From IMG/VR virus record IMGVR_UViG_2703719368_000014: 5,794 nucleotides of DNA. One strand, written 5' to 3'. A program made the translations under genes and the position numbers. This document shows positions 667 through 1,137 of this stretch, in pieces (within the stretch, counting starts at the first letter, position 1; each line of letters begins with the position of its first letter). Source of the DNA: a virus. Lineage: Duplodnaviria > Heunggongvirae > Uroviricota > Caudoviricetes. The notes beneath the pieces were generated by a model. The model had not been told where the DNA came from, made no database searches, and was given only the letters and a program-made list of their open reading frames with translations.

Positions 667-1137
667 CTAATAAAATACCCAATTTTCTGTTTCTTGGTTG
701 TGTCCAAAGTTATATTCAATATCTGGTGTTGATGTATCAATATTTTTCATCCCATCAACAAGAGTTGATACAACAGCCAAATCTTGTTTTATTCTCATTA
801 AATGGTATTTCTTCCGGCGCAATAAACTTTCAATAGCAAGTTTCTTCGTTGGGAATGCAAAAGATCTTTCTGCATTTTTTGCTACTTTCTTAATTGCATA
901 TCTATTTCTCCTTTGTTTCCATTCCTGTAACCACTGATTTGGTGCTGGTTTAAAATTAACAATCCAATGCGCAGGAACCAACCATGCATAATGCTCTGTC
1001 TGATGAAAAGCTATATATTGAAGTGCGAATATTTTTATCCCATCTTCTCCAACTGTCGCCTGGAATCTCCAGAAAACAGGCATTCCATCATGTTCAGTTT
1101 CTGATTCAGGAAAAGGTACGCTCCATGATTTTGTCAT
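667..1137 (-). CDS. Hypothetical protein, 156 aa, in the N-to-cIII accessory slot of the pL operon
   Basis: Longest ORF in this interval, same orientation as the pL operon. GAGGTGAG Shine-Dalgarno lies about 5 nt upstream of the ATG at 1137. Looks AT-rich by eye. No family recognised from the translation. Confidence 0.6.
   Translation of the reverse strand: MTKSWSVPFPESETEHDGMPVFWRFQATVGEDGIKIFALQYIAFHQTEHYAWLVPAHWIVNFKPAPNQWLQEWKQRRNRYAIKKVAKNAERSFAFPTKKLAIESLLRRKKYHLMRIKQDLAVVSTLVDGMKNIDTSTPDIEYNFGHNQETENWVFY

Follow-up and report, generated by a model that had tools for sequence, protein, structure and literature searches.

The Window and the 156-Residue Gene

The viral DNA recorded as IMGVR_UViG_2703719368_000014 and analysed here over its whole length of 5,794 nucleotides (5.8 kb), further called the window, is, judging by its sequence, the immunity and early-left region of a 933W-like lambdoid prophage of the Shiga-toxin (Stx) type. 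It is 99.0% identical to phage 933W, with 99% of the window length covered, its positions 600-1200 match Escherichia coli chromosomal prophages at 100% identity, and the exact window sequence was found on 537 contigs. The genes of the minus strand follow each other leftward in the order cI, a DUF3024 gene, a homologue of 933W L0083, stk, an open reading frame (ORF) of 54 amino acids, N, an ORF of 156 amino acids, cIII and kil. The 156-residue ORF (667-1137, minus strand, ATG start) is the subject of this study. It is a member of the 933W L0079/HK97 gp45 family (PHROG 1636) and represents a functional, dispensable, cassette-borne accessory gene of the leftward early (pL) operon.

This gene has already been catalogued and is not new, and its function is uncharacterised. 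The profile of PHROG 1636, a family with no function assigned, was matched end to end (residues 1-156 on 1-156 of 156, E=1.5e-111). The protein shows 99.4% amino acid identity to 933W L0079 (AAD25424.1), the single substitution being G30 for E30, and 98.7% to HK97 gp45 (AAF31125.1), while its counterpart in phi24B is vb_24B_11c. The ORF is carried by 83 deposited phage genomes, mostly those of Stx1 and Stx2 phages, together with HK97, H-19B and BP-4795, and by 561 of 5,426 complete E. coli genomes (about one in ten). All sources label the protein 'hypothetical' or 'prophage protein'. An earlier sequence-only reading of the window had presented the ORF as an unknown gene, which is correct in so far as no record assigns it a function; that the ORF is known and widespread had escaped recognition.

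The same reading had described an AT-rich ORF of 156 residues with a good Shine-Dalgarno sequence, flanked by a lambda-like cIII and a non-lambda N, and in all of this it was accurate, the coordinates being exact. The sequence GAGGTG lies at 1147-1142, four nucleotides ahead of the ATG. The GC content of the ORF is 35.5% (25% at third codon positions) whereas N has 48.7% and the kil/cIII region 42.2%. The lambda-like cIII of 46 amino acids (335-475, minus strand; Pfam Lambda_CIII, E=1.5e-29) is the next gene past the terminators described below, and the lambda cIII thermoregulator at 430-488 is the sole Rfam match of the window. The antiterminator gene N (1196-1579, minus strand; PF25694, E=2.8e-15) is of the 933W/H-19B/HK97 type and is located directly upstream of the ORF in the same transcription unit.

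Selection on the Coding Sequence

The ORF is under purifying selection, with ratios of non-synonymous to synonymous substitution rates (dN/dS) of 0.06-0.25. Estimated by the Nei-Gojobori method, the ratio is 0.06 with 933W as the reference, 0.09 with HK97 and about 0.2 with a homologue of 44% identity; in comparisons with 63%-identical homologues dS is saturated and dN reaches just 0.24-0.28. Full-length homologues extend down to about 20% identity. The coding conservation among relatives on which the sequence-only reading had staked its proposal is present. No other frame, antisense or shifted, stays open throughout the homologues, and a gene in another frame or on the opposite strand was ruled out because such frames are not conserved among them.

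The insertion sequence IS629 was found inside the ORF, at about window position 720, in the Stx phage genomes JLK-2012 (JQ347801.1) and Stx2a_F422 (AP012531.1), and these copies are truncated at about residue 138. Its interruption in these two deposited genomes is compatible with an accessory function that the phage can do without.

The Cassette Site

In a direct alignment, gam-kil-cIII of lambda corresponds to window positions 1-534, and positions 535-657 correspond to the 123 nucleotides of lambda between ea10 and ral, at 97.6% identity. The ORF therefore stands where lambda has sieB-orf28-ral. The earlier suggestion that it replaces ral, sieB and ea10 holds for the sieB-orf28-ral segment and fails for ea10, which is missing as a separate and precise difference of 400 bp from 933W, with its junction at 534/535. 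The ea10/ssb (DUF2528) cassette, situated between the two terminators in 933W and lambda, is precisely absent from the window and from HK97, and 534/535 is a second, independent indel site of the N-cIII interval.

That this slot is a true cassette site, swapped by recombination, is well supported by sequence comparison. Four prophages with both flanks at 92-100% identity were fetched (L016-L019), and each carries a different cargo: a Ral-family remnant with two small ORFs in L016, an 83-residue PHROG 2471 protein in L017, PHROG 2471 with DUF7446 in L018 and a 207-residue Nmad5 protein (PF18757) in L019, Nmad5 being a nucleotide-modification-associated domain. This comparison of the slot across prophages bears out the view that the interval is an accessory hot spot subject to recombinational exchange. 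On one side the cassette ends exactly at the start codon (1135-1137) and on the other no more than about ten nucleotides past the stop (657-665); the shared flanks comprise an upstream linker of 62 nucleotides and a downstream flank of about 125 nucleotides. At least one flank of the ORF occurs in 2,214 E. coli genomes, the ORF itself in only 561; in the phage collection, 236 records contain the linker, 325 the downstream flank and 83 the ORF. Independently, Silas et al. (bioRxiv 10.1101/2023.04.06.535777) counted the ral interval among the accessory regions in which counter-defence genes and defence triggers abound.

The upstream linker (1138-1199, minus strand), which includes the Shine-Dalgarno sequence, is conserved and probably serves as the recombination joint on the right-hand side of the cassette. 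In L016 and L018 the annotated N-like genes, which differ from that of the window, have their C-terminus (..VTCVGRQKMKLGSKPLI) encoded by it, whereas in the window, after a 933W-type N, it is non-coding. Being coding there and non-coding here, the linker looks like a retained 3' end of N, a piece of coding sequence that may now provide the homologous joint for the exchange of N alleles and cargo.

Transcription Context

The gap between N and the ORF is 58 nucleotides. No sigma-70-like promoter was found on the coding strand at 150-2100 by a consensus scan, which a weak or activated promoter could escape, and no intrinsic terminator was found between N and the ORF. A terminator-like site inside N (1265-1277) was discounted as short and devoid of a proper T run. 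The first intrinsic terminator past N and the ORF (545-562, minus strand) corresponds to the site past gene 45 that the HK97 record labels a 'putative terminator'; the second (505-524, minus strand) lies just upstream of cIII, and the ea10/ssb gene of 933W sits between both. As the ORF has no detected promoter of its own and the first intrinsic terminators come after it, it appears to be transcribed together with N from pL. Transcription ahead of the first terminator implies in turn that the product would appear as soon as infection or induction begins and that the gene would be silent in a repressed prophage, which corresponds to immediate-early timing.

By definition, a strict moron is driven by a promoter of its own and is expressed in the prophage state. 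The sequence-only reading had considered such a gene, and in this strict sense the label does not fit, because the ORF belongs to the pL operon, no promoter of its own was detected and its terminators, part of an operon flank conserved in lambda, are shared with the operon.

Directly after the stop codon of the ORF, a 16-bp hairpin (620-657, minus strand) can be formed, with a dG of -21.7 kcal/mol, a z of -5.8 and no U tract. It consists of 14 consecutive pairs followed by two beyond a bulge of one nucleotide on each side, and as part of the downstream flank it recurs between ral and ea10 of lambda, with 97.6% conservation. Rfam has no match to it; a role in RNA processing or stability, or as a binding site for a protein, is conceivable.

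Properties and Predicted Fold of the Protein

The L0079/gp45-type protein is soluble, of a single domain, with a mass of 18.5 kDa and an isoelectric point (pI) of 9.3. Its charges are distributed unevenly: residues 1-60 are acidic (pI 5.3), residues 76-125 are strongly basic (pI 11.4, with 15 K/R) and residues 136-156 are acidic and aromatic (pI 4.1). AlphaFold2 gave a mean local confidence (pLDDT) of 77 with an alignment of 23 sequences, and a pLDDT of 94.9 with a predicted template modelling score (pTM) of 0.81 when 46 sequences including distant relatives were aligned. The predicted topology comprises long beta strands at 19-30, 33-46 and 50-55, two short helices, a short strand at 83-86 and a helix of 33 residues at 98-130, so that in the model an acidic beta-sheet forms the N-terminal half and the long helix lies within the basic centre. 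The C-terminal tail has little regular secondary structure, and the high confidence with which it is modelled suggests a tail folded against the core.

In the wider family, where identity to the query falls to 15-28% in the remote members, K or R is found at twelve positions in at least 60% of the sequences: R24, R76, R79, K83, K84, K87, R91, K98, R108, K109, K110 and K117. Such a deeply conserved basic surface is most simply explained by the binding of nucleic acid or an acidic partner, and we infer that the protein binds nucleic acid or an acidic nucleic-acid-handling host protein.

No relative of the predicted fold was found among solved structures, and phmmer and profile searches of PDB gave nothing credible; the modelled fold is apparently unsolved. 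For small beta-barrel binders of nucleic acid or RNA polymerase (Tudor/KOW/AP2-like), the structural matches were weak and Tudor/KOW-like. Homology to a known core function, which would be at odds with the accessory role proposed earlier, was not found; Pfam and NCBIfam had no match and PHROGs matched only families without an assigned function. A 2H phosphoesterase, considered on account of a conserved H-x-T-x motif, was dropped, as the motif is a single one and no fold match was obtained.

The Family and Its Genomic Contexts

All relatives are standalone proteins of about 140-169 amino acids, and no fusions occur. Close relatives (55-84% identity) belong to Enterobacterales prophages, and distant ones to Pseudomonas, Pantoea, Vibrio and marine phages. 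Two long 'homologues' (P0043 and P0048) were recognised as artefacts of low-complexity repeats. In twelve independent contexts the family gene is located in a phage early region: between N and kil/gam/recT or erf, just upstream of xis-int, beside RecT/YqaJ/RdgC, or as the first gene of a small operon with a ParB-like gene.

Genes of DNA methyltransferases lie at most five genes away in 6 of the 12 contexts (L008, L012/L013, L014/L015, L021, L025 and L027), and an Acb2/Tad1-type gene and MazG-like pyrophosphohydrolases were found near some homologues, as were genes of Gam, RecT or Erf. Taken with limited weight, such neighbours are in keeping with an anti-restriction or counter-defence setting. 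Three contexts (L004, L025 and L027) have CsrA-like genes. Tandem paralogues in L014 were ruled out, the neighbouring genes being unrelated.

Other Features of the Window

Four cargo genes (2032-4108, minus strand) separate cI (4169-4876, minus strand) from the tM terminator. The DUF3024 gene (3767-4108, minus strand) matches the PADLOC candidate defence family PDC-S43 (E=2e-42). The 933W L0083 homologue (3239-3700, minus strand) bears the PHROG label 'RuvC-like resolvase', with Pfam RuvC reaching only E=0.04. Next come stk (2199-3245, minus strand), which encodes a eukaryotic-like kinase and is PD-T4-6/MAD6-like, and the 54-residue ORF (2032-2196, minus strand). Stk of 933W has been reported to exclude HK97 (Friedman et al., 2011); the DUF3024 gene, the L0083 homologue and the 54-residue ORF appear uncharacterised.

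The reading frame of N is intact in the window and encodes 127 amino acids. Its leader from the boxB of nutL (GCGCTGACAAAGCGC) to the Shine-Dalgarno sequence of N is an unrelated stretch of 75 nucleotides (1609-1683), compared with 112 nucleotides in 933W and HK97, and the replaced leader yields an in-frame upstream ATG at 1645, which gives an extended N ORF of 149 amino acids. In a RefSeq genome with a 100% match to window 600-1200 (L022, NZ_CP032808.1), the annotation pipeline PGAP gives at the place of N only a 69-bp pseudogene 'regulator, incomplete' (9597-9665).

Possible Function of the Gene

In our opinion, the product of the ORF would be made early, with N, from pL and would be absent from a repressed prophage. 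This soluble protein could bind nucleic acid or a nucleic-acid-handling host enzyme through its conserved basic surface and act on the host, in counter-defence or takeover, for instance by interfering with restriction; its role would be analogous to that of Ral in place and timing and mechanistically unrelated to it. We favour this reading tentatively, and counter-defence is the best guess by association only, because Ral and Nmad5 cargoes share the slot and methylase, Acb2/Tad1-type and MazG-like genes lie near homologues. A narrower version, in which a structurally new family acting very early with N would use its basic surface to neutralise host restriction or another nucleic-acid-targeting defence, unlike the mimicry of Ocr/ArdA or the methylase activation of Ral, appears rather doubtful. 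Several points weigh against the host-directed reading. The associations with neighbours are weak, as the early regions of phages often carry methylase and recombination genes, and among the genes of the lambda slot is sieB, an exclusion and not a counter-defence gene. Neither the protein nor 30 family members scanned singly matched Pfam, NCBIfam or PADLOC; no similarity to the known anti-restriction folds (DNA mimics Ocr/ArdA, ArdB/KlcA) was detected, and a DNA mimic is not to be expected of a basic protein with a pI of 9.3. The searchable literature yielded no study of, or functional evidence on, the L0079/gp45 protein, and the ORF protein is absent from the 200 accessory genes screened by Silas et al. 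The immediate-early timing, too, is presumptive, since Rho-dependent termination could occur between N and the ORF. L0079/gp45 is neither part of Tai/Ati nor among the OLD triggers.

The main rival, somewhat unlikely in our estimate, is that the protein serves the phage's own nucleic-acid transactions and not the contest with host immunity, as an accessory factor that binds DNA or RNA in recombination, replication or transcription. In one version it would be an RNA-polymerase- or DNA-binding cofactor made with N, and the weak Tudor/KOW-like matches give a hint of this. A superinfection-exclusion or abortive-infection gene guarding the lysogen, i.e., a SieB-like defence moron, would agree with the presence of sieB in the same lambda interval, with an AT-richness relative to the neighbours that is usual in morons, and with the other defence cargo nearby (stk and the DUF3024/PDC-S43 candidate). 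However, such a gene is improbable here because no promoter of its own was detected for the ORF: the scan of the coding strand at 150-2100 gave no promoter-like site and the gene lies within the repressed pL operon shortly past N; nor is there SieB similarity or a PADLOC match. As for a spurious or decaying ORF without function, the lack of any characterisation and the disruption by IS629 in some prophages could be quoted in its favour, but the low dN/dS, the non-synonymous divergence of only 24-28% from distant homologues at saturated dS, the full-length homologues across Enterobacterales, Pseudomonas, Vibrio and marine phages, the high-confidence AlphaFold2 model with 46 sequences and the strong Shine-Dalgarno sequence all contradict it. 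Judged by these conservation data, a non-functional ORF is refuted and its probability is practically nil.

The gene is of interest because it is carried by the intensively studied model phages HK97 and 933W and by most 933W-like Shiga-toxin phages and is still functionally uncharacterised. Apparently, the leftward operon encodes just two proteins ahead of its first intrinsic terminator, L0079/gp45 being one of them. If a counter-defence role is true, a new fold would be added to that repertoire, and the gene could bear on the establishment of Stx phages in new hosts. It is a well-defined and cheaply testable candidate and not a discovery.

Comparison with Known Systems

The closest counterparts, HK97 gp45 and 933W L0079, share with the window ORF the position after N and the downstream terminator, and no record assigns them a function. 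The N-gp45-terminator segment of HK97 is colinear with window 495-1608 at 97.7% identity. In 933W the ea10/ssb gene follows downstream, whereas the window and HK97 are without it.

When its profile was compared with those of Ral, SieB, Ea10, Nmad5, DUF7446 and the remaining cargos of the slot, hhalign probabilities did not exceed 1%, and homology to any of them was ruled out, in agreement with the earlier statement that the ORF is unrelated to ral, sieB and ea10. Ral alleviates type I restriction, its mode of action being methylase activation. Like the 156-residue ORF, its gene is an early accessory gene of the pL operon, and in lambda, as well as in E. coli prophages whose flanks are identical to those of the window, it fills the same slot, bordered by N and the hairpin-terminator flank. 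The lambda Ral has 66 amino acids vs 156 for the ORF product, and no similarity was detected (hmmsearch E=1.4, hhalign probability 0.1%, no Pfam match). SieB, encoded in the N-to-ral interval of lambda, is the slot counterpart of the ORF and has no similarity to it (hhalign probability 0.3%); the RefSeq record of lambda has sieB and N on opposite strands, whereas the ORF shares the strand of N and no promoter of its own was detected. Ea10/DUF2528 ('ssb') of lambda or 933W is likewise dissimilar (hhalign probability 0.2%). Nmad5 (PF18757), DUF7446 and PHROG 2471 can take the place of the ORF in the slot, between the same flanks, and are unrelated to it in sequence.

Compared with a moron in the Hendrix/Juhala sense, the ORF has the deviating base composition (35.5% GC vs 48.7% in N and 42.2% in kil/cIII) and does not appear to be an autonomous transcription unit. 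The protein orf184 from the accessory region of ral (Silas et al.) is an unrelated acidic protein of 107 amino acids. The concept is the same as that of the accessory genes of Silas et al.: fast-exchanging genes, enriched in counter-defence functions and in triggers of defence, that are situated between conserved genes.
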